A stretch of DNA of 64,000 nt from NCBI GenBank assembly GCA_900550255.1, contig URQZ01000005.1, positions 8,208 through 72,207 on the forward strand, given 5' to 3'. Position 1 is the stretch's first letter, and every line of letters starts with the position of its first letter. This document shows, piece after piece, positions 44,819 through 63,368 of the stretch. The translations under genes were made by a program, and so were the position numbers. The notes under the pieces are model-generated. The model had not been told where the DNA came from. It saw only the letters and a list, made by a program, of their open reading frames with translations, and searched no databases. Source of the stretch: an uncultured Mycoplasmatota bacterium. GTDB lineage: Bacteria; Bacillota_I; Bacilli_A; RF39; UBA660.

Positions 44819-45104
44819 AAATAATACCGCCTTATCCTGAAGAAATGTTATCATGAAAAAAGGCTGAAAATTTTGATTTCTACTTGTTTTACATTTGCAC
44901 TAGCACAAGTTGTTTATTAACAAAAATCGACATATTTAAAAATTACCAAATTGACATAAAAAATGCCCGAATTTGCAACTTTCGTTGTATACCTGCATTT
45001 TATTTGATAATATCGTATCGTGACTGTTAGATTGTAGTCGCTAGTCATTAAATATTTTGTCGTTTTTTGATGACTGAAATTTATTGAAAAAGGTGGTTAG
45101 AAAA

Positions 45105-45368: not shown

Positions 45369-45379
45369 TAGTTTTTTTT
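45352..45379 (+). terminator. Rho-independent terminator overlapping the csp stop
   Basis: Stem aaactact/agtagttt, 7-nt loop, T8 run. Confidence 0.6.
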
Positions 45380-45430
45380 GTTTCAATAAAAAAAGAATTG
45401 TGTTATAATTAAAGTAGGAAGGGTGATATC

Positions 45431-45961
45431 ATGAAATTTAATATTCGTGGAAGTAAAGACATCTTAGATGAATCAGTAAAAAATTACATTGAAACAAAAA
45501 TTGGAAAACTAGACAAATACTTTGAAAATCCAGATGAAATAACAGCAAACATCTTAGTTAAAGAATCAGGAATAAAAGAAACAATTGAAGTTACAATTCC
45601 AATAAAGAAAGCCATTCTTAGAGCAGAAGATAGTAACAAAGATATTTATGCTGCTATTGATTTAGTTTTAGAAAAACTAGAAAGACAAATTCGTAAGAAT
45701 AAAACAAAAATCAAACATAAAACAAATAAGGAAAATATAGATGTATTTATTGACTTTGAAATAACAGAAGAAGAAGTTAATAATAATAAAATTATAAAAA
45801 GAAAAAAAGTTGAAAATAAACCAATGGATGAAGAAGAAGCAATATTACAAATGGATCTTTTAGGACATGACTTCTTTATATTTAAAAACATTTCAACTGA
45901 TAATGTTGCCGTTGTATATAGAAGAAAAGACGGAGATTATGGAATTATAGAAATGATATAG
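45431..45961 (+). CDS. hpf: Ribosome hibernation promoting factor, long form
   Basis: N-terminal RaiA/S30AE domain plus the C-terminal dimerisation domain (MDEEEAILQMDLLGHDFFIFKN). Conserved hpf-secA synteny. Confidence 0.9.
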   Translation: MKFNIRGSKDILDESVKNYIETKIGKLDKYFENPDEITANILVKESGIKETIEVTIPIKKAILRAEDSNKDIYAAIDLVLEKLERQIRKNKTKIKHKTNKENIDVFIDFEITEEEVNNNKIIKRKKVENKPMDEEEAILQMDLLGHDFFIFKNISTDNVAVVYRRKDGDYGIIEMI

Positions 45962-45963
45962 CT

Positions 45964-45991
45964 AAAAGTTCTTTTAAATAAGAACTTTTTT
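45964..45991 (+). terminator. Rho-independent terminator after hpf
   Basis: 10-bp stem aaaagttctt/aagaactttt with a 6-nt loop and T run. Confidence 0.65.
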
Positions 45992-46062
45992 AATTAAATT
46001 ACTATTATTTTTTTGGTTTTTTTGATAAAATATAATATAGTTATTTAGAAAGGATGATATGA

Positions 46063-48606: not shown

Positions 48607-48661
48607 TTTGTCATCTGTCATCCATTTGTCATCCAAAAATGAAAAAGATGACAAAGATGAC
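48607..48661. repeat. Cluster of five GTCATC/GATGAC hexamers (three direct, two inverted) between secA and the integrase remnant
   Basis: GTCATC at 48610, 48617 and 48628. GATGAC at 48647 and 48656. The 9-bp inverted repeat tttgtcatc/gatgacaaa lies within the cluster. Confidence 0.7.
48616..48634 (+). repeat. Left copy of an 18/19 direct repeat, tgtcaYccatttgtcatcc
   Basis: Matches 61935-61953 with one mismatch (T/C at position 6). Confidence 0.75.
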
Positions 48662-48723
48662 TTATGGGAGTTAGTATCTAATGCTAACTCTTTTTCATTT
48701 GCTGATATTAGGGAGGAAAAATT

Positions 48724-49302
48724 ATGATTAATATCAGAAAAAGAGGAAAAGTCTATCAATATTCATTTGAAATTGCGAAAGTTGATGGAAAAAGACGACA
48801 AATAACAAAGTCAGGATTTGCTACAAAGTCAGAAGCACAGAAAGCAGGAGTTATAGCATATAATGAATATATGAATAACGGAAAAATATTTAATTCAAGT
48901 AATATGTCTTATGCAGATTACTTAGAGTATTGGATTAGCACATATGCAAATCTGAATTTAAAATATTCCACAATAGTAACTTATTACAATATAATAAAAA
49001 TTCATTTAAAACCAAGAATTGGTCATTATATGTTATCTCAAATTGACTCAAGATTATTACAGCAAACTATTAATAAAATTTATGTAGATAATTCATTTTC
49101 AAAAAATTATATTGCAAGTATATTAAAAGTAATAAAGGGTTCTTTTAAATATGCATGTTATTCTTTAAATCTTATCAATGAAAATTCAGCAGAAAGAGTT
49201 CATGCACCAAGAATGAATAAAATTGATAAGGATCCAGTTCATATATTTACACAGGAAGAAATGGAAAAAATATTAAAAAATATAGACAAGAGAAAAATAT
49301 GA
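48724..49302 (+). pseudogene. Tyrosine recombinase (phage/ICE integrase) N-terminal fragment lacking the catalytic domain
   Basis: Arm-type DNA-binding N-terminus (IRKRGKVYQYSFEIAKVDGKRRQITKSGFATKSEAQKAG) and a SAM-like core-binding domain. Stops at 192 aa, where the catalytic domain should begin. Confidence 0.75.
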
Positions 49303-49547: not shown

Positions 49548-50435
49548 ATGGATAATTTTAATCTGAACTTATTTAAATATTTTTATTATGTTGTGCTATA
49601 CAACGGAGTCACCAATGCATCTAAAAATTTAAGTGTTGCACAACCATCTTTAAGTTTAAGTATTAAAAATTTAGAAGGTCAGTTACAAAAGGCATTAATT
49701 GATAGAACAAGTAAACAATTTATGTTAACTGATGAAGGAGAAAAACTTTTTGAATTGTTAAAACCATTTTTTGAAAATATGGAAAAAAATATAGATTTTT
49801 CTAATAAGAAAAATAAATATGAAGTAATAAATATAGGTATACGTTATTGCTATGCAAAAAGTATATTAAGTAATTTTATTACCCTATATAGTCAAGAACA
49901 TCCTAAAATTAAATTAAATATAGATTTATATTCTAAACTAAATTTTGAAAAGGTAAAGAACAAAGAATATGATATTGTAATTGATGATTACGATTATGTA
50001 AGTCAATTGGAAAATATATCAATTGAAAATTTAATTAGTATAAAGAACTATTTTATATGTGGTAATAAATATTATAATGATTTTAAAGATGTAAGAAGTA
50101 TAAGTGAACTTGATGAAGCACCTTTTATTTCTTATAGGCCATCATTAAAAACTGGAAAATTTAGAAAGTTATGTTATGATAACAATGTAAGTTTTATTGA
50201 ACTATATAATGTTAATGAATCAGATTTATATTTTGATTTATTGATTAAAAATTCAGTAATAGGTTTTACAAATGAGATACTTTTAAAAGAGTATTTAAAC
50301 AATAATGATATTAACATAATTAAAGTTTGTGAAGAAATATTCAATGATCAAATTTCACTAGCAATATCTAAAAGAAATAAGAATATAGATGAGTTTTCAA
50401 AAATGTTAATATCATATATAAATGAGGTGTTATAA
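49548..50435 (+). CDS. LysR-family transcriptional regulator
   Basis: N-terminal wHTH FKYFYYVVLYNGVTNASKNLSVAQPSLSLSIKNLE plus an about 200-aa substrate-binding domain. Confidence 0.85.
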   Translation: MDNFNLNLFKYFYYVVLYNGVTNASKNLSVAQPSLSLSIKNLEGQLQKALIDRTSKQFMLTDEGEKLFELLKPFFENMEKNIDFSNKKNKYEVINIGIRYCYAKSILSNFITLYSQEHPKIKLNIDLYSKLNFEKVKNKEYDIVIDDYDYVSQLENISIENLISIKNYFICGNKYYNDFKDVRSISELDEAPFISYRPSLKTGKFRKLCYDNNVSFIELYNVNESDLYFDLLIKNSVIGFTNEILLKEYLNNNDINIIKVCEEIFNDQISLAISKRNKNIDEFSKMLISYINEVL

Positions 50436-50941
50436 TGGAAAAATGGGATTTATATGATAATAAATTAGATAAAACGAATTTATCTGTGTTTAGTGATGAA
50501 GAAATTCCTAATGGATATTATCATATGGCAATTGATATATGGATAGTAAATAATGAAAAAAAATTAATGTTAGTTAAAAATAGCATAGATTATACTAAGC
50601 TATATCCTGACTATTGGGTGAATATTGGTGGTAATTTATTAAGCAACGAAAATATAGAGTTTTGTATTAAAAGAGTTTTAAATGATAAATTAGGATTAAA
50701 TATAAATACATTTAATTATGAAATTAAACATCCTATAAAAAGAGATCCACATAAATATGCTTATATGACTTGTATTTTATTTGAAGATATAAATATTAAA
50801 AATATTGAATTAAGTGATTCTAACTATGCAGATATTAATTTTTTTACTAAGGATGAAGTGAAAAGAATGTGCAATAATGGGGAAGTTGCTTATTATTTGA
50901 TAGATAGAATTAATGATCAAATAATAGATTATTTAAATTAA
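50435..50941 (+). CDS. Nudix-fold protein with a degenerate Nudix box
   Basis: GGNLLSNENIEFCIKRVLNDKLGL aligns to GX5EX7REUXEEXGU, but REVxEE is RVLNDK. The ATG overlaps the LysR stop (TAATG). Confidence 0.6.
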   Translation: MEKWDLYDNKLDKTNLSVFSDEEIPNGYYHMAIDIWIVNNEKKLMLVKNSIDYTKLYPDYWVNIGGNLLSNENIEFCIKRVLNDKLGLNINTFNYEIKHPIKRDPHKYAYMTCILFEDINIKNIELSDSNYADINFFTKDEVKRMCNNGEVAYYLIDRINDQIIDYLN

Positions 50942-51062: not shown

Positions 51063-52583
51063 ATGCTTGAAAATCCAGGATCAATAGAAAGATTATTAGA
51101 AAAAAATCCACTTTTACGAAATAAGGTTAGAGGATTACCTAATTTAGGTAAAAGATTAAATGAAGAAGAATTTTCTACTGAAGTAAAAGAAATATATAAT
51201 GCTTTCTCTATTTATGGTAATGATTTATATATTTTGGAGAATGAAAAAATAAAAGATTTAGAAACTAGATCATTAGGTGGTGGAAGTCCAATGAAAACTG
51301 GTGCTTTTCCATTGTGTAAAAAAAGTATGATGGATACAATTCAATCTGATGACATGTTTGAATATCCATTAGCAGCTGGAGATGAAAAATCAAGAGAAGA
51401 AATAGTAGAATATTTAATTAAAGAAGGATTTAAAAGTAAAAATGGTGTAAACAAAGATAATATAATTTTTACAATATCATCAACACAAGCTTTTAATTTA
51501 ATAATGAATTTGATTGCACGACCACATGATGTTGTATTAATGACTGGACCGAATTATGGATTATTTACATTTGTTCCAGAGAGAAGTGCAGGTGCAACAG
51601 TTGAAATTTTACCATTATCTGCTGATGATAATTGGCAAGTAAATCCTGAAAAATTAAAAAATAAAATTAATGAATTAAATAAACAATTAGAAGAAAAATA
51701 TAAAGATAAACTAGATTATGTTCCAAAGGTTGTTGCATTTTTAAATGAAAATCCTCATAATCCATTAGGAAAAGTTATGGGAAAAAATGAAAGCAAATTG
51801 CTTTATAATATTGGTAAAGTTTGTTTAGAAGAAGGCGTATTTGTCATTGATGATATTATTTATAGGGATTTAACATTTGATAGAGATAATATGGCTATGC
51901 CAATGGGAACTAATCCTGAGTTATTTGATAATACAATAACTATTACAGGTTTGTCAAAATGTTATGGTTTAGCTTCATTACGTGCAGGAATGATCGTGGC
52001 ACCAGAACCTATAATTAGAGGGGTTAGAAATTTAATTTTTCAAAATATGGATTCTTCACCAGTTTTACAAGGAAAAGCGTTGGCAGGTGCATTTAATTCA
52101 TCAAATGAGAGATATATTGAATATGAAAAGTATTTTAATCCAATTATAAAAGAATATAAGTATAGATTAGAATTACTTAAAGCGTTAGTAGAGGGAATTG
52201 ATTACATAACAGATTTAAAGTTAAAATTGGCAATTGAATGTGATATTAGAAAATATGCATCAAATGATTTTAATTGTAATGAATTATTGGAAGGAATTCC
52301 AAATGTTCATTTTCTAAAAAATTCAATACCAGATTCAGGATTCTTTGCATTATTAGATTATTCTAATTTAAAAGGAAAATCTGCTGATGGAAGAACAATA
52401 ACTTCCGAAATTGAATTATTGAAATACATGTATGAGCAAGAAAAAATTAAGATTATTCTTGGTCAATCAATTTCATTTCCAAATAAAGAACAATTAATCG
52501 GTAGGGTTACAACAGCATTAGAACGAAATGAATTAATTAATCATATGGGAGCAATGAATAAATGCTTAAGGAAATTGAGGTAG
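51063..52583 (+). CDS. PLP-dependent aminotransferase, class I/II fold (506 aa, longer than typical)
   Basis: Candidate PLP-lysine motif GLSKCYGLASLRAG. The NPHNPLG motif is typical of class I aminotransferases. Confidence 0.8.
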   Translation: MLENPGSIERLLEKNPLLRNKVRGLPNLGKRLNEEEFSTEVKEIYNAFSIYGNDLYILENEKIKDLETRSLGGGSPMKTGAFPLCKKSMMDTIQSDDMFEYPLAAGDEKSREEIVEYLIKEGFKSKNGVNKDNIIFTISSTQAFNLIMNLIARPHDVVLMTGPNYGLFTFVPERSAGATVEILPLSADDNWQVNPEKLKNKINELNKQLEEKYKDKLDYVPKVVAFLNENPHNPLGKVMGKNESKLLYNIGKVCLEEGVFVIDDIIYRDLTFDRDNMAMPMGTNPELFDNTITITGLSKCYGLASLRAGMIVAPEPIIRGVRNLIFQNMDSSPVLQGKALAGAFNSSNERYIEYEKYFNPIIKEYKYRLELLKALVEGIDYITDLKLKLAIECDIRKYASNDFNCNELLEGIPNVHFLKNSIPDSGFFALLDYSNLKGKSADGRTITSEIELLKYMYEQEKIKIILGQSISFPNKEQLIGRVTTALERNELINHMGAMNKCLRKLR

Positions 52584-52585
52584 CT

Positions 52586-53494
52586 ATGTATAGAATTGGA
52601 ATTGTTTCATGTGATAAATGGAAAAATAAAATAATAGAAGATATTTTGTTAAAAGAAGAATTAACTAGTATGGGTCATAATGCTGAAATAATTTCTTGGC
52701 AACAACCATTAAATAACAATTATGATATATTGATATTAAGATCAGTTTGGGGATATCAAAATGATTATTCTAATTTCAAAAAATGGTTGATATCCTTAAA
52801 TGATAAGAAAATTAAAATTGTTAATGATGTAGATTTGATTATTAATAATATTGATAAATTTAGACAATTTGAGATACTAAAAAAATATAATAAGAGTATT
52901 ATTAAAACCGTTTTTTTAAAAGATTATATTGCTGATTTTCAAAGTTTAGAAGAAAAAATAAATTCAATTAAGAGTGATCTTTGTGTAATTAAACCATCAA
53001 TTTCTGGTAGTGGTGAAAATACTTTTCTTTTTTCAAAGACAAATAAATTAATTGATATACCTAATTTCATAAAAAAAGATGAAGTATTAAAAAAAATAAA
53101 TATAATATTAGAAAAAAATGACGATTGTCGAATAATGATTCAACCATATATAAAAGAAATTAATAGTGGTGAATATTCGTGTATATTTATAGATGGTAAT
53201 TTATCTCATGTGATGCTAAGATTTCCAAATGTTTTTCATGAAAAGAAACAACCATACATAATAAATGAAGTACCTAAATGTATTATGGATTTAGCAATGG
53301 CTATTGAAAAAATTCCAGAATATTCAAATTATTTATATATGCGAGTTGATATTGTAATTCAAAATGGTATTGCAAAAGTAATGGAAGTAGAACTTGCTGA
53401 ACCAGATTTATTAACAAGATATGTAGATACATATGAAAAACAAAATGAAATAATCAAATCTTTATCAGAGGGTTTGGAAAGGAGAATAAAATAA
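52586..53494 (+). CDS. ATP-grasp family ligase (RimK/glutathione-synthetase-like), substrate unknown
   Basis: ATP-grasp pattern VIKPSISGSGENTF...IMIQPYIKEI...MEVELAEPDL. The ATG at 52586 follows GAGG, 2 nt after the aminotransferase stop. Confidence 0.65.
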   Translation: MYRIGIVSCDKWKNKIIEDILLKEELTSMGHNAEIISWQQPLNNNYDILILRSVWGYQNDYSNFKKWLISLNDKKIKIVNDVDLIINNIDKFRQFEILKKYNKSIIKTVFLKDYIADFQSLEEKINSIKSDLCVIKPSISGSGENTFLFSKTNKLIDIPNFIKKDEVLKKINIILEKNDDCRIMIQPYIKEINSGEYSCIFIDGNLSHVMLRFPNVFHEKKQPYIINEVPKCIMDLAMAIEKIPEYSNYLYMRVDIVIQNGIAKVMEVELAEPDLLTRYVDTYEKQNEIIKSLSEGLERRIK

Positions 53495-54207
53495 TGAATT
53501 CTATAAAAATAGCATTTACTGGTGGACCATGTGGTGGAAAAAGTACATCATTAAATTATTTTAAAGAACAATTAAAAAAAGAAAATTACAATATTGGTAT
53601 TGTTTCTGAAACAGCAACGGAACTTTTATCATTAGGTATTCTTCCTGGAAATAATATTACTTTAATAGATTTTCAAAATCTTTTATTCAAAATTCAATTT
53701 ATAAAAGAATATAAAAAGGAGAACGAAAAACAAATATTGTTATGTGATAGAGGATTATTAGATGGGAATGTGTATTTAGAAAATAATGCTTTTGAAAAAA
53801 TATTATTTGATAATAGAATAAAAAAAGATGAACTTATTTCAACATATGATGGTGTACTTTATTTTAAAACAATAGCAAATGATTTTCCAGAAAAATTCAA
53901 GCTGATGAGAAAATATGAAACACCAGAAGTTGGAATTACTAGAGATAAAAAATGTTATATGGTTTGGCTTGATAAAATTATAAATGATGAGTGCGATAAT
54001 CAAAATGGTATAGAATTTAAACAAGTTCAATTATTTGATTATTTAATAAAACATTTAGATTCTATTGATATGACTAAAACCAAAACATTGTCGGATTATT
54101 ATGATATAAATCACTTAAATTTTATTAAAAATAGTATAGATAATATTTTTAATAAAAGTATATTTTCTGATGATCAAATTCAAAAAGTAAGGAGATTGAC
54201 TATATGA
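53494..54207 (+). CDS. P-loop NTPase/kinase of the AAA_28 (NadR-kinase-like) type
   Basis: N-terminal Walker A FTGGPCGGKST, about 237 aa. Start overlaps the upstream stop (TAATG). Confidence 0.55.
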   Translation: MNSIKIAFTGGPCGGKSTSLNYFKEQLKKENYNIGIVSETATELLSLGILPGNNITLIDFQNLLFKIQFIKEYKKENEKQILLCDRGLLDGNVYLENNAFEKILFDNRIKKDELISTYDGVLYFKTIANDFPEKFKLMRKYETPEVGITRDKKCYMVWLDKIINDECDNQNGIEFKQVQLFDYLIKHLDSIDMTKTKTLSDYYDINHLNFIKNSIDNIFNKSIFSDDQIQKVRRLTI

Positions 54208-55460
54208 AAACATTATTATATTTTGAAGAGTATGAAAGTAATTTATCTCACAAACTTTTTGAAAGAACTGATATTTTGCCAATAATATTGAGAACAACTA
54301 AAAATATGAGGTTTTTTTCTCAAGAATATTTAAAAGAAACACAAAAATATAAAATTTATATTGTAGATTATTTCAATGATATGGATGAGGAAGTTATAAA
54401 ATTTAAAAAATGGTTATATGAGAATAAGTTAGTTATTGATTATTTTTTAAATGATTCTGAATATTATTTGGAATATTCAAATAAATTTGCAGAAAAATTA
54501 GGATTAAATGCATTATCTGCACAACAAATTTTGTGGGTAAGAGATAAAGTAGAAATGAAAAAAAGGTTTCGAGAAATTGGATTGGATACAGTTGATTTTT
54601 ATGAAGTTAATGATAAAAATGAAATAAAAAAAATATTTTTTGAATCAGGTAGAGAAAAGATGATTTTTAAGCCACGTCGTGGTATGAATAGCATAGATAC
54701 ATATATAATTAATTCGGAAGATGATATTGATAATTTAAATATAAATATAGAACCTGGAAAATATATGCTTGAACAATTTTGTTATGATCATGAGTGGTCA
54801 ATAGAAAGCATTGTACAAGATGGAAAAGTAATAGATTCATATGTTACGTATATCCCAAATCCTACAATTTGGGCATCTATTGCAAATGAACTAAATTGTC
54901 ATATGACTATCCCAAAAATTCCAAACTATTTTAAATTTACACCAAAGGAGTATATTCAACAGATAGTTTCAGGTATGAATCTTAAAGATGGTGCAATGAC
55001 AATTGAAGTATTTATCAGTAATGATGGAAATATTAAAGCTAGTGAATTAGGATGGAGATTGCCTGGATGTCAAGCTACATTAAATCATAGTTATTCATAT
55101 GGAATAGATATTTATAATGCATTACTAGATATTGCCATTCATGATAAAGTTAGTTTTCAATATAGAAATCCTATAATAAGTGTCGGAGATTTATATTTGC
55201 CTAATAAGGAAGGTATAATTAGTAACATTACTCCATTATCGGATTTATTAAAAATGGACGGAGCAATTGATGGTGAATTATTTACTAAAGTAGGTGAATT
55301 TCAAAAGAAAAGAAGAGTGGGAAATGATGCCTCAGGATGGATTCAAGTTGCTGGTGCAGATGAAAACGACACATTGAGAAAAATGCAGTATATTTTTGAT
55401 AATTTTGAAATAGAAGTTAAAGATGAGTACAAGGAGAAAAAATATGTTAAAAAAATTTAG
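54204..55460 (+). CDS. ATP-grasp family ligase (L-amino-acid-ligase/carboxylate-amine-ligase-like), substrate unknown
   Basis: 418 aa with KMIFKPRRGMNSIDTYII...MLEQF...ASELGWRLPG ATP-grasp features. ATGA overlap with the upstream gene. Confidence 0.6.
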   Translation: MKTLLYFEEYESNLSHKLFERTDILPIILRTTKNMRFFSQEYLKETQKYKIYIVDYFNDMDEEVIKFKKWLYENKLVIDYFLNDSEYYLEYSNKFAEKLGLNALSAQQILWVRDKVEMKKRFREIGLDTVDFYEVNDKNEIKKIFFESGREKMIFKPRRGMNSIDTYIINSEDDIDNLNINIEPGKYMLEQFCYDHEWSIESIVQDGKVIDSYVTYIPNPTIWASIANELNCHMTIPKIPNYFKFTPKEYIQQIVSGMNLKDGAMTIEVFISNDGNIKASELGWRLPGCQATLNHSYSYGIDIYNALLDIAIHDKVSFQYRNPIISVGDLYLPNKEGIISNITPLSDLLKMDGAIDGELFTKVGEFQKKRRVGNDASGWIQVAGADENDTLRKMQYIFDNFEIEVKDEYKEKKYVKKI

Positions 55461-56211
55461 TTTAGTAATTTTGTTTAGTATTTTATTCATAACAGGATGT
55501 ACAAATAAGGTAAAAGTAATAAATAGTATAGAAGATTTAAGTAGTAGCAATATAGGCGTTTATACTGGCTCTGAATATGATATTATTCTTTCCAAAAAAA
55601 TATCTGATGCAAAACCAAAATATTATAATAGTTATAGTGATCAAATTTCTGCATTAAAATCTGGTAAAATTGATGGCTTTTTAAGTGATGAGCCATTAGC
55701 AAAAGAAATAATTAATAATAATAAAAATCTAAAAATATTGAAAAAAATAACCAATGATAGTTATGCCTATGCAATAAATCCGAAAAAAAATGATTTAAAG
55801 AAACAAATAGATGAGCAATTAAAAAAAATGAAAGATAATGGAATTTTATCTTCATTTGAAGAAAAATGGATGGGTAATGACGAAGAAAAAAAAGTTTTAG
55901 GAAATTATAAATACGATCCTATAAATGGAATCATAAAGTATGCAACTGTATCAGGATCGGCACCATTTGCGTATATGAAAGACAATAAAATTGTTGGTTA
56001 TGATATTGATGTAATGATGTATATATGTAAAGAATTAGGATATAAATTAGAAATTATTGAAATGTCATTTGATGGTATTATTCCAGCGTTAAAATCTGGA
56101 AAAGTAGATATATCTGGTTGCTCAATAATTGTAACGGAAGAAAGAAAAAAATCAGTTATATTTTCAGAACCTAATTATACGGGCGGAATAGTAATAGTCA
56201 CAAGGAAGTAA
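55444..56211 (+). CDS. Polar amino-acid ABC transporter substrate-binding lipoprotein (SBP family 3)
   Basis: Lipobox LFITGC after the signal peptide. Two-lobe SBP_bac_3-like sequence. The ATG at 55444 follows AAGGAG. Confidence 0.8.
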   Translation: MLKKFSLVILFSILFITGCTNKVKVINSIEDLSSSNIGVYTGSEYDIILSKKISDAKPKYYNSYSDQISALKSGKIDGFLSDEPLAKEIINNNKNLKILKKITNDSYAYAINPKKNDLKKQIDEQLKKMKDNGILSSFEEKWMGNDEEKKVLGNYKYDPINGIIKYATVSGSAPFAYMKDNKIVGYDIDVMMYICKELGYKLEIIEMSFDGIIPALKSGKVDISGCSIIVTEERKKSVIFSEPNYTGGIVIVTRK

Positions 56212-56215
56212 GTAA

Positions 56216-56980
56216 ATGAAACGGAAAAATATATATTATATTGTTATAATTTTTTTAATAATTTTGATAACTATATTTAATTATAATGATATAGTTAAAA
56301 ATTTTAATAACATAGTAATAAGTTTTAATAGAACTTTAATTGAGGAAGATAGATATTTATTAATGCTTGAAGGACTAAAGTCAACTTTAGTTATATCTAT
56401 TTTTTCTATAATATTTGGAACAGTAATTGCATTTGTAATATTTTTGATGAGAGTAACAAAATTACCAAAATTAAGCAAGTTTATTGTTTCATTGTTGCAA
56501 GGAACACCATGTACAGTGTTATTATTAATTCTATATTATGTTGTGTTTGGAAAAGTTAACATTGAGCCTTTAATAGTAGCAATTATTGCATTTTCAATTT
56601 ATTTCGCTGCATATGTATCAGAGATTATTAGAGGGGCATATAATTCACTAAATAAAAATCAAATTTTATCAGCTTATTCATTAGGCTTTAATAAAGTTCA
56701 AACATTTAAATATGTTATATTACCACAAGTATTAACTTACACGATTCCTGTATATAAAAACGAATGTATTTCATTAATAAAAATGACATCAATTGCTGGA
56801 TATATTTCAATAATGGATTTAACAAAATCTAGTGATATTATAAGAAATAGAACATATGAGGCATTTTTTCCATTGATATTTACTGCGTTTGTATATTTTG
56901 TGATTTGCAAAATTGTTAGCTATTTATTAGATACAATTTATAAAAAAATTAATAAAAGAGGTGCAAAGAATGAAAAGTAA
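56216..56980 (+). CDS. Polar amino-acid ABC transporter permease
   Basis: HisM/GlnP-type permease with the EAA-like loop AYSLGFNKVQTFKYVILPQV. Confidence 0.8.
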   Translation: MKRKNIYYIVIIFLIILITIFNYNDIVKNFNNIVISFNRTLIEEDRYLLMLEGLKSTLVISIFSIIFGTVIAFVIFLMRVTKLPKLSKFIVSLLQGTPCTVLLLILYYVVFGKVNIEPLIVAIIAFSIYFAAYVSEIIRGAYNSLNKNQILSAYSLGFNKVQTFKYVILPQVLTYTIPVYKNECISLIKMTSIAGYISIMDLTKSSDIIRNRTYEAFFPLIFTAFVYFVICKIVSYLLDTIYKKINKRGAKNEK

Positions 56981-57638
56981 TATAATTTTGCAATTATGTG
57001 ATATTAGTAAATATTATAAAAATAATATGATATTCAATAATATAAATTTAACAGTTAATAAAGGTGAAGTTGTTTCAATAATAGGAAAAAGTGGATGTGG
57101 CAAAAGTTCGCTGCTAAAATGTATAAATAAATTAGAAAAAATTCAACAAGGAAAAATATTTATATATAATCATGATGTTGAAAATATAAAAGTTGAAGAC
57201 TTAAGAAAAAGAGTTGGTATTGTATTTCAAGATTATAATTTGTTTAGTCATTTAACAGTAATTGAAAATTTGACTATAGGATTAATGAAAATCAAAAAAA
57301 TGACAAAAAGTGAAAGCATAAAAAAAGCTGAGGAAATATTAAAGAAAATTGATTTAATAGATAAAAAAAATAATTATCCAGATGAATTATCAGGCGGACA
57401 GCAACAAAGAGTTGCAATTGCAAGAACTATTTTAATGAAACCTAATTTAATTTTGCTGGATGAACCTACAAGTGCTTTAGATAAAGAAAGTAAAAATAGT
57501 GTTTTTGATATGATAAAAGAATTAGTAAAAGAAAATATGACTATGATTATAGTTTCACATGAAGAACAATTTGTTGAAGAAATATCTGATAGGATTTTTA
57601 AATTAAATAAACATGAATTAAAGGAGATGAAAAAATGA
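56970..57638 (+). CDS. Polar amino-acid ABC transporter ATP-binding protein
   Basis: Walker A GKSGCGKSS, signature LSGGQQQRVAIAR, Walker B LILLDEPTSALD, H-loop VSHE. Confidence 0.9.
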   Translation: MKSNIILQLCDISKYYKNNMIFNNINLTVNKGEVVSIIGKSGCGKSSLLKCINKLEKIQQGKIFIYNHDVENIKVEDLRKRVGIVFQDYNLFSHLTVIENLTIGLMKIKKMTKSESIKKAEEILKKIDLIDKKNNYPDELSGGQQQRVAIARTILMKPNLILLDEPTSALDKESKNSVFDMIKELVKENMTMIIVSHEEQFVEEISDRIFKLNKHELKEMKK

Positions 57639-58786
57639 CAAATAAAGATTTGAGCATAGATGAATATAATAAACAGGAAATAGATGGAAAGGTAAATTTA
57701 TCAAATAGATTTATAAGAGCATTTAGACCTAAATTATTTGAAAATGGAGGTTTTCCAACTACTGTTGTTAAAGAAGAAGAATTAATTAGATACATAGACA
57801 GTATGCATGCTTATAGTTTAGAAAGACATTTTAAGGAATTATGTGGTGGAATAACCAAAGAAGAGTTTGAATTGTTAAAAAAATGTACTAGTGATATATT
57901 TGATGTAACAAAAAAATATTATGATGGTGATTTCTTAGTAAAAGCACCTATGATTGCTTCTATATGTGAAAAAAGAATTATAGAAGCTGCACTTGGAACA
58001 ACTAATTCTAAAAGAGTTTTTGAAATTGGTGGGGGTGCAGGAACATTAGGATCTTTATTGTTAGAAGACAAAGTAAACTATTCTGCAACTGATGTTACTC
58101 AAGCATTTTATTTAGTACAAAATAGATTATATAACTACATCACAAAATTTAATGTTAATGAATTAGCAAAAGAAAAATTAGATGAAAAATCTCCCTGTAT
58201 TCATGTTCCATATTGGGAATTATGGAATTTAAAGGATAAACCATTTAATATTGATTTAGTTGTTTCTAATCATGCATTATTAGAGATGAGCCCTAATTCA
58301 TTGAGATTTTATTTGAATTTTTGTAGAACAGCAATGGAAAAAAGTAATGATGGATTATTTGTTTTTCAAGGAGGAGGTTGGAGAATAGAACAAAATTTAA
58401 TAGACTTAATTCAATTGTTTGATGAATATGGTTATAATTTAAAATATTTCGATCATAGTAAGGAAATTGCAGCATTTTCATTAAGTAGTGGAAGTGTTAC
58501 AAAAGAAGTATTAGAAGCATTAAAAGAATTGTTGAAACAAGATGTTGAAAATGAAAAAATTTATGCATTAGGTAATCATATTAGAACAAGATTAAACAAA
58601 GATAAAATATATTATTGTGGTGATCTTGGTGAACGAATGAATGATAAATTTAATCAAATAAAACAAGCGCCAAAAATTGCTTTTGAAGAATTATTAGAAT
58701 TTTATAGTCAATTTGATAGTATTAAAGAATCTCCTGATGATGAATTTGGAAATTATATATTGAGTAAAAGGAAGGTTTTGGAATGA
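57635..58786 (+). CDS. Class I SAM-dependent methyltransferase-like protein (383 aa), substrate unknown
   Basis: Motif I VFEIGGGAGTLG followed by an acidic residue (ATDV). ATGA overlap with the upstream gene. Confidence 0.55.
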   Translation: MTNKDLSIDEYNKQEIDGKVNLSNRFIRAFRPKLFENGGFPTTVVKEEELIRYIDSMHAYSLERHFKELCGGITKEEFELLKKCTSDIFDVTKKYYDGDFLVKAPMIASICEKRIIEAALGTTNSKRVFEIGGGAGTLGSLLLEDKVNYSATDVTQAFYLVQNRLYNYITKFNVNELAKEKLDEKSPCIHVPYWELWNLKDKPFNIDLVVSNHALLEMSPNSLRFYLNFCRTAMEKSNDGLFVFQGGGWRIEQNLIDLIQLFDEYGYNLKYFDHSKEIAAFSLSSGSVTKEVLEALKELLKQDVENEKIYALGNHIRTRLNKDKIYYCGDLGERMNDKFNQIKQAPKIAFEELLEFYSQFDSIKESPDDEFGNYILSKRKVLE

Positions 58787-59415
58787 GCACTATAATTTTT
58801 GTTGGTGGATCAACAGCAAGTGGAAAAAGTACATTTGCAAAAGAATTAAACAAAAATTTAGATGGAAGTTTTATGTATAGAAGATTTCAATGTTTTTATG
58901 ATATTGCAAAGTTTAGAAATATTCCCTCTGATGAAATATTTGATAAAGTTTCTTCTGATGAGGTTGATAACTTTTTCCTAGAAAAATGCTTGAAACATGA
59001 TTATATAATTTCGGATGTTCATTATGCTGTTCAATTATTTCAAACAAAATCAAATTCAGAAATAGATGATAAATATTATCCAACAATATCAAATGAGTTA
59101 ATTAATAAGTTTTTGAATAATGATGTAAAAATAATTTGTATATATATATCTTGTTCTCCAAAAGAATGTGTTGAAAGATCAAATATAAGATATTTAGAAA
59201 CAGGAAAAGAAATAAAATATAAAACTATAGAACAAGCTATTATTGAGAATAATCATGAAAATTATGAATGGTATAGACTTTTAAATAATAAAGATATTTT
59301 AGGAATTGAATTAGATTCTGAAAACTATAAACCAACAGAACTTGTTGAACAATTTATTAATGTCATCAAAGAAGAAAAGAATAATTCTAAGATATTAAAA
59401 AAAGCAAATATGTAA
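58783..59415 (+). CDS. P-loop kinase-like protein (AAA_33/zeta-toxin-like fold class), substrate unknown
   Basis: N-terminal Walker A FVGGSTASGKST, about 210 aa. ATGA overlap with the upstream gene. Confidence 0.5.
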   Translation: MSTIIFVGGSTASGKSTFAKELNKNLDGSFMYRRFQCFYDIAKFRNIPSDEIFDKVSSDEVDNFFLEKCLKHDYIISDVHYAVQLFQTKSNSEIDDKYYPTISNELINKFLNNDVKIICIYISCSPKECVERSNIRYLETGKEIKYKTIEQAIIENNHENYEWYRLLNNKDILGIELDSENYKPTELVEQFINVIKEEKNNSKILKKANM

Positions 59416-59469
59416 TTATATTACAAATATGATATAATTATGATAATTTATGAGGAAGAAGGAATATAA

Positions 59470-59988
59470 ATGAAAGAAACAATTTATAATTATGATTATT
59501 TAACTGACAATGATATAACAGAAGTTGTCGTTAGGACGAAAGCATTAATAATTAAAAATGAAAATATTTTGGTTGGAAATGAAAACGGACTATTTCAATT
59601 TCCAGGAGGACATTTAGAAAAAAATGAAAGTATTACTAATTGTTTAAAAAGGGAAGTTTTAGAAGAAACAGGTATCGAACTTGATGACGAAGAAATAAAA
59701 CGTCCATTTTATAAAGTTACTTTCTTGTCTAAAGACTGGCCTGAAAAAGGAAAAAATAGAAAAGCTGAGATATATTATTATATTGTTGAAACTAACAAAG
59801 ATGTTAATCTATTAAAAACAAAATATACTGAACATGAAAAACAAGGCAATTTTAAAATAGAATCATTTAAACTTTCAGAAGCTGTAGATAAGATAAAAGA
59901 AAACATTCCAAATAATGAAAAGAATAAAATAATTTCACCAGATATGATTACTGCGATAGAAGAATATATAGAACAGAATAAGGATTAA
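59470..59988 (+). CDS. Nudix hydrolase (canonical Nudix box), paralog 1
   Basis: GGHLEKNESITNCLKREVLEETGIEL matches GX5EX7REUXEEXGU. Confidence 0.85.
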   Translation: MKETIYNYDYLTDNDITEVVVRTKALIIKNENILVGNENGLFQFPGGHLEKNESITNCLKREVLEETGIELDDEEIKRPFYKVTFLSKDWPEKGKNRKAEIYYYIVETNKDVNLLKTKYTEHEKQGNFKIESFKLSEAVDKIKENIPNNEKNKIISPDMITAIEEYIEQNKD

Positions 59989-59991
59989 AAA

Positions 59992-60564
59992 ATGAATTTT
60001 ATAGAAAAAAAATTTAATAGTAACGGACTAAAAGAAAATGATATTGATGAAATAACAACAAGAGCTAGAGCGTTGTTAATAAATTTAAATAACGAAATAT
60101 TAATGTGTTATTCAAATGGACTTTCACACTTTGAATTTCCAGGAGGGCATTTAGAAAAAAATGAGACACTTGAAGAATGCCTAATTAGAGAAATTTTAGA
60201 AGAAACAGGTATAGATATTTCAACTGAAAATAAAATACCATTCTATAATATAAAATATTATTGTAAAAATTACAAAAATAGTAATAAAAATCGATTAGTG
60301 CAAATATATTATTATATTGTTTATACTGATAAAGAATATGATCCCATAAAAAGAAATTTAGTAGAGAGTGAAATTGACCAAAATTATGAATGCAAATATA
60401 TACCATTTGAAATATTAAAAGGCGTTTTAACTGATAATTTAGAAACGACAAAAGAAAAGAATACTGCTTTATATGATATGATAAGAGTATGTAATGAGTA
60501 TTCAAAAATAAAAGATATGTTAAAGATTGAATGTGAAGGAGGAATTAAATGTGGAAGATTATGA
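59992..60564 (+). CDS. Nudix hydrolase (canonical Nudix box), paralog 2
   Basis: GGHLEKNETLEECLIREILEETGIDI. The N-terminal region is alignable to paralog 1. Confidence 0.85.
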   Translation: MNFIEKKFNSNGLKENDIDEITTRARALLINLNNEILMCYSNGLSHFEFPGGHLEKNETLEECLIREILEETGIDISTENKIPFYNIKYYCKNYKNSNKNRLVQIYYYIVYTDKEYDPIKRNLVESEIDQNYECKYIPFEILKGVLTDNLETTKEKNTALYDMIRVCNEYSKIKDMLKIECEGGIKCGRL

Positions 60565-61747
60565 TGTATTTGCAGAAATGCAAAATATGGATGAAAAACA
60601 AACAATTATGTTTGTCGAAGACGATGAAAAATTTATAAGCGAAAATTTATTGAATTCAGATTTTGAATGTATTCCTGTAAGATTTACTTATAATTTAGAT
60701 TGTTTTAGTAAAGAATATGTAGAATTAACAAAAAAATTATTTACTTACTATTTTGAAGAATTAAACTCTTTCGATAATGAATGCTTAAAATTAAAAAAAC
60801 ATTTTATTCATTTTCAAAGAAATCCATTTGCTTGTTATTTACCTGCTATAGATGGGAAATATGAGGATTTGTATAAAATGTTACAAAAATTAAATGTTGA
60901 ATGCATTACTGATAAATCAATTTTCTTGAAGAAAATTAATAATTATAGCAAAATGATTTTCATAGATAATGATGGCACTTTAAAAAATAATAAAAGTGAG
61001 ATAACTGATAAGACAAAAGATATAATTAAAAAAATGGGTGAAATTGGTAACTATGTTGTCATATGTACATCAAGACCAAGATATCAGGCGTGCGAAATAA
61101 TGAAAAATTCTAATGCAAGTAATTATGTTGTTTCGTTAAATGGGTCTGATATTTATGATATGAGTGAAAATAAGGTCATATTTGAAAATTTAATAAATAA
61201 AGAAATGTTAATTAAATACATTAATTATGCATATGATAATGATTTAAGACTAGTATTGTCATCATCAGATTATGATTATGTAACAAAAGATGTTAGAAAT
61301 GATAATCAATTTTTATTGAATAAAGAAAATTTTGTTGATATTATTGATAATTTACGTATTAAACAATGTATGTTTATAGATGATAATAAAGAAAAGATTA
61401 ATGAAGTTAAGAAAAAAATAGAAGAAGAACAGTTGATTAAAATAATAGATGAAAAATCTGATAATTTATCAGGTGATGAGCAATGGATAAGTTTTTCTGA
61501 TATTAATACTTCTAAAGGTAACGCAATGAAATTTTTGGCAGATTATTTAAATATTCCATATTTTAGAACAATTGCAATTGGAAATGAAAAAAATGATTTA
61601 TCAATGTTTGAGCAAAGTGGATATAGTATTGCTGTGGAAAATGCAGATAAAATACTAAAAGAAAATGCAGATTATGTTACATTATCCAATGATGAAGATG
61701 GTGTTGCACATGTTCTTGAATTAATTTTAAAAAAAGGAAAATATTAA
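60551..61747 (+). CDS. HAD-superfamily (Cof-type) phosphatase with an about 140-aa N-terminal domain of unknown function
   Basis: HAD motif I FIDNDGTL, motif II TSRP, motif IV GNEKND. The GTG at 60551 has an AAGGAGG SD 8 nt upstream; the track start is the TTG at 60527. Confidence 0.75.
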   Translation: MEDYDVFAEMQNMDEKQTIMFVEDDEKFISENLLNSDFECIPVRFTYNLDCFSKEYVELTKKLFTYYFEELNSFDNECLKLKKHFIHFQRNPFACYLPAIDGKYEDLYKMLQKLNVECITDKSIFLKKINNYSKMIFIDNDGTLKNNKSEITDKTKDIIKKMGEIGNYVVICTSRPRYQACEIMKNSNASNYVVSLNGSDIYDMSENKVIFENLINKEMLIKYINYAYDNDLRLVLSSSDYDYVTKDVRNDNQFLLNKENFVDIIDNLRIKQCMFIDDNKEKINEVKKKIEEEQLIKIIDEKSDNLSGDEQWISFSDINTSKGNAMKFLADYLNIPYFRTIAIGNEKNDLSMFEQSGYSIAVENADKILKENADYVTLSNDEDGVAHVLELILKKGKY

Positions 61748-61934
61748 TGTTAGAAAAGGACTTTAATTAATAACCCAAAAGTTATAACTATTGAAATACC
61801 GTAATTGTAATTAGATAATAATTAGTGTATAATATAATTGTTAAATCGTTCAAATGTACAAATAATTTTATTGTAGATTTGAATATTTAATTTACATATC
61901 ATATAATCGTATCAGCAAATGGAAAAGCTGACAA

Positions 61935-61953
61935 TGTCACCCATTTGTCATCC
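61935..61953 (+). repeat. Right copy of the 18/19 direct repeat, tgtcaYccatttgtcatcc
   Basis: Matches 48616-48634. Confidence 0.75.
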
Positions 61954-61954
61954 G

Positions 61955-62138
61955 ATGATAGATAATATAAATAAGATTAATACTATAAATACTACAAATA
62001 CTACAAATAGTAAATCAGTTTTACCAAGTAATATAAGGAAATATAAATAATATTACAAATAATATAAATACCGTAAATACTAAGCAAATTTGTTCTTGTG
62101 GATCTGGTAAAAAATACAAACAATGTTGTGAAAAATAA
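61955..62138 (+). pseudogene. Disrupted small N/T-rich ORF ending in a SEC-C zinc motif (possible displaced secA 3' end)
   Basis: MIDNINKINTINTTNTTNSKSVLPSNIRKYK-stop in one frame (61955-62050). GNINNITNNINTVNTKQICSCGSGKKYKQCCEK-stop in another (62037-62138). The last 48 nt resemble the secA 3' end. Confidence 0.55.
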
Positions 62139-62149
62139 AATAATTTAGT

Positions 62150-62175
62150 AAAGTCCTGAAATATGGACTTTTTTC
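62150..62175 (+). terminator. Rho-independent terminator after the SEC-C remnant
   Basis: Stem aaagtcc/ggacttt, 8-nt loop, T run. Confidence 0.6.
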
Positions 62176-62252: not shown

Positions 62253-63368
62253 ATGCAAGTACGAAATAATTATAATGAATGCTTAACAAATTTAGCTTGT
62301 TCTATAAGAAAATATTTTGATTTAGATTATAAGCATAATACGGTTGATTATATAGATAAGATATTGAAAGAAAATAAACCTAAAAATGTTGTAACAATAT
62401 TATGTGATGGAATGGGCTCTAATATAATGGATAAAATTTTATCTAAAGATTCTTTCCTTTTAAAACATAGAATAAAATCAATAACAACTGTTTTTCCAGC
62501 AACAACTGTTGCAGCTACGACATCTATGATTACAGGTTTAAACCCAGTTGAAACAGCTATGCTAGGTTGGGATATGTATTATAAAGATATTGATAAAACA
62601 ATTACAACGTTTATGAATTCTGAAAAAGGCGATGAAGAATGTACTCCATTACAAGAAGCAATTGAATATAAACATAAGCATATGATTACTAAGCCTATAA
62701 TAGAAGAAATTAATGAAAAGGGAAAAGATTCAGGATATAGTTTATTTCCGTTTGGGAAAAATTCATATACCGATATTGAAGACTTATATAATAAAATAGA
62801 AACACTATGTAATGAAGATGGAAAAAAATACATTTATGCATATGATATAGAGCCAGATCATACAATGCATGAACTTGGAACTGATGCATATGAAATAAAG
62901 AAAATTGTTGAAAATATTAATTTTAAAGTAGAAGAATTAAGTAAAAAATTAAAAGATACAATAATATTTGTTGTAGCTGATCATGGACATAAAAATGTAG
63001 AAAACATAATGCTTGAAGATTATCCTGATATAGTTGATTGTTTAGAAAGAAATACTTCAATTGAACCAAGAGCAGTAAATTTTTTCATAAAGAAAAACGA
63101 AAAACAAAAATTTGAATTATTATTTAACAAGTATTTTAGTAAAGATTTCAATTTATATACTAAAGAAGATGTTATAAATTCTAATCTATTTGGTACAGGT
63201 AAAGAAAATGAAATTTTCCGTGATATATTAGGAGATTACCTTGCAATAGCAAAAACAAATAAAACATTATTATATGGTGGTTCTAAACCATTAAAATCTC
63301 AACATGCAGGTTACACTGATGATGAAATTTATATACCTTTAATTGTAATAAATACAAATAATATATAG
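62253..63368 (+). CDS. Alkaline-phosphatase-superfamily protein (type I phosphodiesterase/nucleotide pyrophosphatase family)
   Basis: Metal and nucleophile motifs LCDGMGS...FPATTVAATTS...VADHGH. Confidence 0.7.
   Translation: MQVRNNYNECLTNLACSIRKYFDLDYKHNTVDYIDKILKENKPKNVVTILCDGMGSNIMDKILSKDSFLLKHRIKSITTVFPATTVAATTSMITGLNPVETAMLGWDMYYKDIDKTITTFMNSEKGDEECTPLQEAIEYKHKHMITKPIIEEINEKGKDSGYSLFPFGKNSYTDIEDLYNKIETLCNEDGKKYIYAYDIEPDHTMHELGTDAYEIKKIVENINFKVEELSKKLKDTIIFVVADHGHKNVENIMLEDYPDIVDCLERNTSIEPRAVNFFIKKNEKQKFELLFNKYFSKDFNLYTKEDVINSNLFGTGKENEIFRDILGDYLAIAKTNKTLLYGGSKPLKSQHAGYTDDEIYIPLIVINTNNI

Follow-up and report, generated by a model that had tools for sequence, protein, structure and literature searches.

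ATP-grasp enzymes, among them the L-amino-acid ligases (LALs), serve in pathways that make several potent antimetabolites and peptidyl-nucleoside antibiotics. Bacilysin biosynthesis combines an aminotransferase with a LAL. The ligases RizA and BlsI use arginine-type substrates, and BlsI places (beta-)arginine on cytosinine, i.e., on an amino group of a sugar/nucleoside scaffold. In the D-cycloserine pathway, DcsA to DcsE cover hydroxyurea formation and include an O-ureidoserine synthase, a racemase, and a serine acetyltransferase. The ligases of mycothiol and bacillithiol biosynthesis are of the MshC/BshC type and not ATP-grasp enzymes. To our knowledge, very few specialised-metabolite pathways have been described from gut Bacilli of the kind treated here, gut Alphaproteobacteria, or the Candidate Phyla Radiation (CPR). 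The stretch of DNA analysed here, called the window, comprises 64,000 nucleotides (approximately 25% G+C) of an uncultured gut Mycoplasmatota bacterium (contig URQZ01000005.1) and carries a block of 14 genes, from a LysR-type regulator to a HAD phosphatase, whose enzyme combination matches none of the pathways named above. The block may be one mobile, self-contained operon that takes up an amino acid and makes from it a small molecule with an amide linkage, a reading that we favour tentatively, as plausible but short of probable. ATP-grasp small-molecule pathways as such are known; new are the composition of the cluster, the pairing of a long aminotransferase (AT) with a small, DcsG-like ATP-grasp enzyme (AG1), and, within this survey, the confinement of the hosts to uncultured lineages. 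A second, large ATP-grasp enzyme is referred to as AG2, and the methyltransferase of the cluster as MT.

The conservation of the genes was surveyed in one genome per species (185,579 species), which were scanned with a profile of AG2 and then with a profile of AG1. For the locus scan, an AG2 alignment of 6 sequences was used, one of 12 being too divergent. The survey yielded 97 distinct loci. AG1-like stretches were rare (142 among the 185,579 species genomes), and 69 of the 83 AG1-like loci with enough upstream flank carry a long AT directly upstream on the same strand. The remaining 14 are distant DcsG-like genes standing alone in Bacteroidota, Actinomycetota, and other groups. Where an AT–AG1 pair had enough downstream flank, AG2 followed within 4.5 kb in 51 of 61 loci and a canonical Nudix gene was present in 52. 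Across 59 loci, the core proteins AT, AG1, and AG2 rise and fall together in their identity to the proteins of the window (r = 0.90–0.95), and the order AT–AG1–(Nudix)–AG2 and its strand are common to Bacilli, Alphaproteobacteria, and CPR bacteria. To judge from order and co-variation, the genes are one conserved functional unit and not a chance juxtaposition, and the co-occurrence of both ATP-grasp genes with the aminotransferase, which the initial annotation had named as a check, is thereby borne out.

The core is carried by three host groups. The first consists of gut Bacilli, many of them labelled Tenericutes, Mycoplasma, or Acholeplasmatales, and the second of gut Alphaproteobacteria, "Candidatus Enterousia" among them. 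The third comprises CPR/Patescibacteria (Saccharibacteria, Paceibacterota, Parcubacteria, Zambryskibacteria, Berkelbacteria, and Taylorbacteria). All core-carrying loci in the survey are from metagenome-assembled genomes (MAGs), and the hosts have mostly small genomes where the size is known. The bin labels Muribaculaceae, Planctomycetia, and Woesearchaeota are probably binning errors. In a second group of Bacilli, AT–AG1 pairs occur without AG2. A search of 50,697 phage records found no AG1 relatives, and one of plasmid records returned only distant Streptomyces or Bacillus ligases.

The first core gene encodes AT (51063–52583, + strand), a class-I/II pyridoxal phosphate (PLP)-dependent aminotransferase of 506 amino acids (Pfam Aminotran_1_2, E 3e-25). 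An alignment of 12 sequences from three phyla shows no variation at Y101, N233, D264, Y267, S298-K299, R307, and R481. These residues include the PLP lysine K299, the cofactor-holding D264 and Y267, the phosphate-binding arginine, and R481 for the alpha-carboxylate, as is characteristic of class I/II. Invariant motifs specific to the family, e.g., P172-E173-R174, were found as well. The top NCBIfam matches were GntC and VioD, which scored no better than generic aminotransferase models.

The second core gene encodes AG1 (52586–53494, + strand; 310 amino acids by the original call). Gene starts were re-derived from Shine–Dalgarno motifs, and that of AG1 was revised to a Shine–Dalgarno-supported ATG. 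The protein gave a weak match to GSH-S_ATP, a match to the DcsG model NF058666 (E 8e-19), and a precomputed match to PF27100 (DcsG_N). The ATP-grasp lysine, the glycine-rich loop, and the Mg ligands are invariant. An AlphaFold2 model (predicted local distance difference test (pLDDT) 85.5, predicted template modelling (TM) score 0.85) had DcsG (6jil) as its first Foldseek match (TM 0.77–0.83, E 1e-19), whereas RimK, Ddl, and ArgX reached approximately 0.6. The enzyme had been described as a RimK-like ligase; the ATP-grasp assignment holds, and it is more specifically DcsG-like. Because its NF058666 score (68 bits) does not come near the equivalog cut-off (360), sequence and model place AG1 as a relative within the DcsG family rather than as a D-cycloserine synthetase.

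The third core gene encodes AG2 (54204–55460, + strand; 418 amino acids), which had been recognised simply as a second, larger ATP-grasp ligase and can now be placed more closely. It contains the domains ATP-grasp_4 and LAL_C2, and the family profile matched RizA (4wd3, E 4e-34), BL00235 (5e-17), and BacD (2e-16) in the PDB. An alignment of profiles with the ligase of the arginomycin cluster gave 100% in hhalign (E 1e-55, 400 columns). The nearest relatives from cultured bacteria occupy the BlsI position in a blasticidin S-type cluster of Kitasatospora and an arginomycin-type cluster of Streptomyces; tblastn with the BlsI-type protein of Kitasatospora gave at most 37% identity to an alphaproteobacterial AG2. 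RizA is the best relative with a solved structure, but the homology to it begins only at approximately residue 109 of AG2, whereas the BlsI-type ligases (Kitasatospora NZ_CP108290.1; Streptomyces NZ_CP107895.1) are full-length homologues that include these N-terminal ~100 residues. The ATP-grasp fold, the LAL C-terminal domain, and the sequence similarity together assign AG2 to the LAL-type enzymes, where by sequence it appears closest to RizA and the BlsI-type peptidyl-nucleoside ligases.

The fourth core position is taken in the window by two tandem, paralogous canonical Nudix hydrolases, NudixA (59470–59988, + strand; NUDIX E 7e-12) and NudixB (59992–60564, + strand; E 5e-13). The Nudix box GX5EX7REUXEEXGU is intact in both, as are the catalytic boxes of the core Nudix proteins in Alphaproteobacteria and CPR bacteria. 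Two DNA repeats, D1 and D2, link the tandem genes (59593–59822 and 60130–60356, 73–79% identical); many related loci have a single copy.

Between AG2 and MT lies an importer of the polar amino acid transport type, consisting of a lipoprotein substrate-binding protein (SBP; 55444–56211), a permease (56216–56980, BPD_transp_1, E 7e-20), and the ATPase of the ATP-binding cassette (ABC) transporter (56970–57638, ABC_tran, E 3e-41), all on the + strand. The SBP has the lipobox LFITGC and both lobes of SBP_bac_3, but with its halves swapped: residues ~159–255 match the canonical N-terminal lobe and residues ~23–151 the C-terminal half. The protein is collinear with the tandem GlnPQ protein 6h30 across its SBD1–SBD2 junction, and because of this collinearity the sequence suggests that the circularly permuted form arose by tandem duplication followed by truncation at both ends. 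In the PDB it is closest to AncQR, to two Thermotoga-type amino-acid-binding proteins, which we take to be the arginine-binding protein TmArgBP, and to ArtJ and GlnH, relationships that place the SBP by sequence in the Arg/Gln class. SBP orthologues in other Bacilli loci have 255–266 amino acids, and that of locus L008 likewise shows split SBP_bac_3 matches. In locus L037 (11221–12747), open reading frame (ORF) calling gave SBP and permease apparently as one 508-amino-acid frame.

The 12 genes from AT to HAD are all on the + strand, and Pfam and NCBIfam confirm each domain call, so that gene number, domains, and strand are as initially annotated. AT and AG1 are separated by 2 nt; AG1 and the gene of an AAA_28 protein overlap by 1 nt (TAATG), the latter and AG2 by 4 nt (ATGA), and AG2 and SBP by 17 nt. 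A gap of 4 nt lies between SBP and permease, followed by overlaps of 11 nt (permease/ATPase), 4 nt (ATPase/MT), and 4 nt between MT and a kinase gene (Kin2). After the gap of 54 nt downstream of Kin2 that had been noted before, two Nudix genes with intact boxes (3 nt apart) and a Hydrolase_3 HAD gene (overlapping NudixB by 14 nt) follow as described. On the sequence, the translational coupling of the cluster genes is real; the accompanying statement that overlaps and gaps within the coupled genes do not exceed 4 nt fails for the three junctions that overlap by 11–17 nt (AG2/SBP, permease/ATPase, and NudixB/HAD). The limits given for the cluster (51063–61747) hold for the 12 genes and leave out two conserved genes upstream. 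The first of these, a LysR-type regulator gene (49548–50435, + strand; HTH_1 and LysR_substrate), is co-directional with the operon and heads most Bacilli versions. The initial annotation already listed the LysR gene; its orientation and its coupling to a catalytically degenerate Nudix gene are added here. The start of this second gene (50435–50941, + strand), conserved after LysR, overlaps the LysR stop by 1 nt. Its product gave a weak NUDIX match (E 1e-4), and in its catalytic box KRVLND replaces REx2EE, so that the glutamates are lost (alignment A6) and the box is not intact. To judge from these residues, hydrolase activity is improbable, and the protein may serve the regulator as a partner that binds a ligand. 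The orthologue of locus L041 has the degenerate box as well, and in most Bacilli loci LysR is followed by a Nudix-type gene.

Only two terminator-like hairpins were found between 48.5 and 64 kb, one after secA (48666–48692) and one after the HAD gene (62150–62171, + strand). Their number equals the expectation from shuffled sequence, and their positions alone are suggestive. A promoter scan was uninformative in this AT-rich DNA (150 sites versus 148 expected), and an Rfam search of the window region and seven related loci gave no match to a riboswitch or other RNA in the leaders.

The locus comparison resolves the cluster, on sequence grounds, into a four-gene core (AT, AG1, AG2, and Nudix), a Bacilli-specific importer, and interchangeable accessory sets. 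The CPR form has the order APH-type kinase–AT–AG1–Nudix–AG2–small protein F10, and loci of the Saccharibacteria type carry a D-2-hydroxyacid dehydrogenase gene after AG2. The alphaproteobacterial form consists of a HisC-like second aminotransferase, AT, AG1, a kinase::AG2 fusion, and Nudix, with a PLP decarboxylase gene on the opposite strand. In the Bacilli form, LysR and the degenerate Nudix gene precede AT–AG1–(AAA_28)–AG2–SBP–permease–ATPase, after which come a variable module, one or two Nudix genes, and HAD. The variable module of the window type contains MT and Kin2. A second type has APH, radical SAM (S-adenosylmethionine), a nucleoside phosphorylase or dTMP-kinase-like protein, a nucleoside triphosphate (NTP)-transferase-like protein, and another APH, where the NTP-transferase-like protein shows weak, below-cutoff similarity to sugar-1-phosphate nucleotidylyltransferases. 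The third type combines a 413-amino-acid protein (F27) with Kin2, a second long AT, and APH, and the fourth Kin2 with APH. The pathway of 12 genes proposed initially is thus a conserved unit but not a fixed one, since MT, Kin2, and AAA_28 are missing from most related loci, where APH kinases, radical SAM proteins, nucleoside phosphorylase, and NTP-transferase take their place. Import recurs among the loci and is provided by non-homologous means: ABC transporters in most Bacilli, an SNF symporter in locus L132, and five Peripla_BP_6 genes and an ABC gene in locus L042. Genes related to nucleotides and sugars recur in the alternative modules (PNP_UDP_1, dTMPK/dNK-like, sugar-1-phosphate nucleotidylyltransferase, PIG-L, GT2, GH20, and nucleoside diphosphate kinase (NDK)).

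Several of these functions are joined covalently in other lineages, and such fusions tie accessory genes to the core. In Alphaproteobacteria, a Cytidylate_kin2/AAA_18 domain is fused to AG2 (P0123 and P0127), and this domain is homologous to the Kin2 of the window (hhalign 96.5%, E 7e-10, 169 columns). Loci L095 and L133 encode a NUDIX::Aminotran_1_2 fusion of 671–674 amino acids, and one Saccharibacteria locus a methyltransferase::Nudix fusion. AAA_28 was also compared with the kinase domain fused to AG2 and is not homologous to it. The CPR protein F10 (L053, 11274–11933; L050, 10172–10891; and other CPR loci) shows the NDK-like motifs FIxLRP... and LGIHHLHSPD; the comparison with NDK-like neighbour genes (hhalign 52%, E 1e-4, no PDB sequence match) leaves an NDK fold only suggestive. 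An NDK-family gene also lies beside the operon in eight CPR loci with several phylum-level labels (L100, 11577–12005; L103, 11668–12123; and six others), where seven have it downstream and on the other strand and L121 has it just ahead of the operon. This neighbour could reflect a functional link or conserved synteny.

Among the further enzymes of the window, the kinases and MT are less firmly assigned. The AAA_28 P-loop protein (53494–54207, + strand; Pfam E 2e-13) occurs in about one-third of the Bacilli loci. MT (57635–58786, + strand) matched the model TIGR04371 with 46 bits (cut-off 44) and is a class-I SAM-dependent methyltransferase; its predicted structure (pLDDT 85) shows the class-I core with intact SAM motifs. 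The structural neighbours are weak (TM ~0.33) and are led by the dTDP-sugar C-methyltransferases MtmC, TcaB9, and KijD1, with spermidine synthases also present. The family is very small (79 clusters among 5.8 billion sequences) and confined to this gene set in the places checked: two divergent homologues (34% and 41% identity) neighbour DcsG-like, LAL, AT, APH, AAA_28, and radical-SAM genes. F27, which occupies the position of MT in other loci, was compared as a candidate divergent MT and ruled out. Kin2 (58783–59415, + strand) is a P-loop kinase resembling nucleoside monophosphate (NMP) kinases, with weak AAA_18, dNK, and Cytidylate_kin matches. The last gene encodes a Cof-type HAD-IIB phosphatase (60551–61747, + strand; Hydrolase_3, E 9e-53, residues 144–397) with an N-terminal extension of ~140 amino acids lacking a Pfam match, and HAD is found in nearly all Bacilli loci. 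Long HAD forms (391–398 amino acids) accompany Kin2 modules, with either MT or F27, and short forms (~260 amino acids) the APH/radical-SAM module.

The block lies on an acquired island, as the initial annotation had supposed, and the borders can now be given. The left border is the 3' end of secA, which encodes the SEC-C motif CPCGSGKKYKQCCGK followed by the stop codon (48508–48554, + strand). At the right border, 3' of the HAD gene, an orphan copy of this end encodes CSCGSGKKYKQCCEK followed by a stop codon (62091–62137, + strand), with 12 of 13 residues the same as in secA; the second terminator-like hairpin lies next to it, just beyond the border. The two 47-nt copies, direct repeat D3, are 83% identical, from which the island appears to have duplicated or replaced the secA 3' end. 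Directly after secA, a decayed tyrosine-integrase fragment of 192 amino acids (48724–49302, + strand) consists of the N-terminal part with its arm-binding and SAM-like domains (the only Pfam matches being Arm-DNA-bind_4 and Phage_int_SAM_3) and has lost the catalytic domain. Integrative islands are marked by an integrase gene and by direct repeats on both sides, at a target that is conserved, and repeat borders and integrase remnant are here the signature, at the sequence level, of an integrative element inserted in the 3' end of secA. The island extends over 13.6 kb (~48.56–62.14 kb) and contains the 14 genes and the decayed integrase. Because the integrase is truncated, the element in the window is probably no longer mobile. 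In a sister clade (large ligase 75% identical), the same 14-gene block from LysR to HAD lies elsewhere in the genome between large serine recombinases, and transposases flank the block in other genomes.

Further imperfect repeats (48616–48658 and 61935–61977) and an inverted repeat pair (48690–48707 and 61910–61927) were seen near the borders. Just outside the right border lie a gene for a type I phosphodiesterase/nucleotide pyrophosphatase (62253–63368) and a DUF1848 gene, which is split into two ORFs in some strains (L003, L006, and L007), suggesting pseudogenisation. Further upstream, the GC skew rises sharply to 0.42–0.45 (41–44 kb) and falls to approximately 0.1 (43–46 kb) within the region 41000–46000. 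This change surrounds a lone gene on the − strand (44204–44854), annotated as AgrB in the matching contig L002.

Compared with the described systems, each relative shares one enzyme or a design logic only, and the cluster is not a pathway for D-cycloserine, bacilysin, rhizocticin, blasticidin/arginomycin, or puromycin. The earlier impression that no characterised pathway matches was thus corroborated by the homology, literature, and Bls searches; no description of this gene combination or of DcsG homologues was found in the literature. DcsG is the best profile and fold match of AG1, with conserved catalytic residues but an identity of just 16%, and none of the DcsA to DcsE functions was present among the window and locus genes annotated with Pfam and NCBIfam. 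AG1 is, in addition, accompanied by a long class-I aminotransferase, an enzyme not known from the D-cycloserine pathway. The partner genes of rhizocticin and bacilysin biosynthesis are absent from the window cluster. BlsI-type ligases are found in small-molecule clusters with an aminotransferase and a methyltransferase, similar to the arrangement here; the aminotransferases of the blasticidin and arginomycin clusters, however, are of DegT or ArgM type and not specifically related to AT. Cytosylglucuronic acid (CGA) synthase (BlsD), BlsE, BlsF, BlsG, the DegT aminotransferase BlsH, and the CMP hydrolase BlsM had no match at E <= 1e-3 in tblastn searches of the window and ~130 loci; BlsD, BlsE, BlsF, BlsH, and BlsM are the builders of the cytosyl-sugar scaffold. 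Membership in the blasticidin/arginomycin group was rejected, as the ligase alone is common to both and the scaffold-building genes were not found. The beta-methyl-amino-acid logic of ArgM/ArgN, an aminotransferase combined with a keto-acid methyltransferase, was rejected as well (AT against ArgM-like proteins: generic, E 6e-4; MT against ArgN-like proteins: hhalign 5%).

The puromycin/cystocin pathway offers the same enzyme combination (Pur4 aminotransferase, Pur7 Nudix, Pur3 phosphatase, and methyltransferases) together with an amide-forming step (PMC11641026). Pur6 is without a recognisable conserved domain (PMC11641026) and is, for that reason, taken not to be an ATP-grasp enzyme. By domain annotation, no dehydrogenase or oxidoreductase domain was present in the island, for which Pur10 and Pur6 sequences were not searched directly. 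The cluster was not counted as a puromycin pathway, given the lack of a Pur10-type dehydrogenase domain and a ligation enzyme that differs in kind from Pur6. A resemblance to mycothiol and bacillithiol biosynthesis is seen in the variants L095 and L133, which have a PIG-L deacetylase, an NTP-transferase, GT2, and ATP-dependent amino-acid ligases. The Bacilli versions, that of the window among them, have a phosphatase. The window lacks the glycosyltransferase and PIG-L, and the resemblance is one of design only. PADLOC gave only generic Nudix and kinase matches to candidate families and no system, and a known anti-phage defence system was rejected.

In the proposed operon, SBP, permease, and ATPase would take up a polar, probably basic (Arg-, Lys-, or Orn-like) amino acid. 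AT would interconvert an alpha-amino acid and its 2-oxo acid and thus supply it to, or consume it for, its obligate neighbour AG1. AG1 would activate a carboxylate as acyl phosphate and form either an intramolecular amide (a cyclic amino acid, as in DcsG) or an amide with an amine. AG2 would join the carboxylate of an amino acid to an amine acceptor, either a second amino acid or the amino group of a sugar/nucleoside scaffold. Kin2 and AAA_28, elsewhere replaced by APH, dTMP-kinase-like, or NDK-like proteins, would phosphorylate a partner or intermediate, which MT would methylate. The two Nudix proteins and HAD could remove pyrophosphate or phosphate last or sanitise toxic phosphorylated forms, and LysR, perhaps with the non-catalytic Nudix-fold protein, would sense a pathway ligand. 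The overall logic proposed initially, from uptake and transamination through ATP-dependent activation of two carboxylates to methylation and phosphate/nucleotide chemistry, fits the domains and is reinforced by the fusions. A basic, arginine-like substrate is suggested by three weak and independent pointers, namely the SBP relatives, the kinship of AG2 with RizA and BlsI, and the GntC/VioD matches of AT. The analogy to BlsI is the reason for considering a sugar- or nucleoside-like amine acceptor. A phosphorylated partner or intermediate of sugar or nucleotide type, from which the phosphates are taken off last, seems integral to the chemistry because kinases (NMP-kinase-like, NDK-like, and APH), Nudix, HAD, nucleoside phosphorylase, and sugar-1-phosphate nucleotidylyltransferase genes persist across the loci, to which some variants add PIG-L, GT2, and GH20. 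As product class, we favour conjugates in which a phosphorylated sugar or a nucleoside-like scaffold bears an arginine-type aminoacyl or peptidyl group. The wider proposal of a new arginine-type conjugate family, blasticidin-like in function with unrelated scaffold chemistry, shared by horizontal gene transfer among gut Bacilli, Alphaproteobacteria, and CPR bacteria, in which the DcsG-like enzyme performs a new ATP-dependent cyclisation, is rather unlikely in our estimation.

Several observations weigh against the proposed operon function. The enzymatic steps are all assigned by homology at 16–37% identity, and the kinase and MT assignments are weak, with several Pfam scores under gathering thresholds and the low TM values of the MT fold. 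Among the genes of the window version there is no dehydrogenase, glycosyltransferase, or nucleoside-forming enzyme for the acceptor. The island genes include the importer and neither an exporter nor an obvious self-resistance gene, so that an intracellular product or a conversion pathway fits better than a secreted antibiotic. AG2 is not obligatory, since the second Bacilli group has AT–AG1 alone. Finally, the accessory modules vary greatly between loci, and the products may therefore differ.

An alternative is an antimetabolite of the Trojan-horse kind, a di- or pseudo-peptide whose logic would be that of bacilysin, rhizocticin, or tabtoxin. The warhead, a cyclic or otherwise toxic non-proteinogenic amino acid, would come from AT and the DcsG-like enzyme, and the LAL would add a carrier amino acid, while kinases, Nudix, HAD, and, at some CPR loci, a neighbouring GNAT protein would protect the producer or handle a pro-drug and not act in scaffold chemistry. 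This would accord with the position of AG2 in the LAL clade with RizA, BL00235, and BacD, the D-cycloserine cyclo-ligase as top fold match of AG1, the bacilysin-like combination of AT and LAL, the mobility and patchy distribution of the element, and the GNAT Acetyltransf_3 genes adjoining two CPR loci. It is nevertheless doubtful, as the cluster has an SBP-dependent importer instead of an exporter, the nearest full-length relatives of AG2 are BlsI-type enzymes and not dipeptide LALs, and the Nudix::AT and kinase::AG2 fusions elsewhere argue for an action on intermediates and not for resistance. The importer without exporter would suit a route from salvaged precursors to a conjugate kept inside the cell or to a building block of the envelope, such as an aminoacyl-aminosugar of the low-molecular-weight-thiol (mycothiol/bacillithiol) logic, a compatible solute formed through phosphorylated intermediates, or amino acids decorating a surface glycan. 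Kinases and NTP-transferases would provide activated sugars or nucleotides, and the HAD phosphatase would finish the route, in keeping with its IIB Cof type, as found in pathways ending by dephosphorylation. PIG-L deacetylase, sugar-1-phosphate nucleotidylyltransferase, GT2, and GH20 in some variants and the fact that MT passes the sugar O-methyltransferase model TIGR04371 point in the same direction, and host genomes look small where readable (records of 1.19 Mb and 1.52 Mb), so that a dependence on salvage is conceivable. We give this explanation a low probability: glycosyltransferase, PIG-L, and NTP-transferase are missing from the window version, the element is accessory and mobile and not housekeeping, and the core is rare even within CPR bacteria.

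A genuine peptidyl- or amino-nucleoside antibiotic pathway of the blasticidin or puromycin type would account for the BlsI homologue, and its combination of Nudix, phosphatase, AT, MT, and ligase has a parallel in Pur7, Pur3, Pur4, and Pur5-DmpM (PMC11641026). Such a pathway is very unlikely here. Counterparts of CGA synthase and BlsE/F/G/H/M were not found by tblastn, a Pur10-type dehydrogenase is lacking, and Pur6 is not an ATP-grasp enzyme; the Bls-type clusters, moreover, have an aminotransferase annotated as DegT/DnrJ-type, unlike AT, which belongs to class I/II and has an arginine for the alpha-carboxylate. As both types fail membership, only a new route to a nucleoside scaffold would rescue this explanation. 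That the genes belong to no single system and are unrelated metabolic genes gathered on an island, or parts of an anti-phage defence island, might be supposed from the variable accessory content and from the recombinases and transposases around the block in other genomes. We consider it exceedingly improbable, since cross-phylum order, co-varying identities, and linking fusions contradict it and, for defence, the PADLOC matches were weak and generic and no AG1 relative was seen in the phage records.

The enzyme families of the favoured amide-forming operon are themselves familiar; what may surprise a specialist is their cross-phylum, MAG-only distribution and the network of fusions. The cluster, with four to six genes in CPR bacteria and 14 here, is a compact entry into the chemistry of bacteria that cannot be grown, and it gives a DcsG-like enzyme outside D-cycloserine biosynthesis a testable function. 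If its product is bioactive or a cofactor-like conjugate, the pathway would bear on the interactions of these bacteria with their hosts and neighbours.

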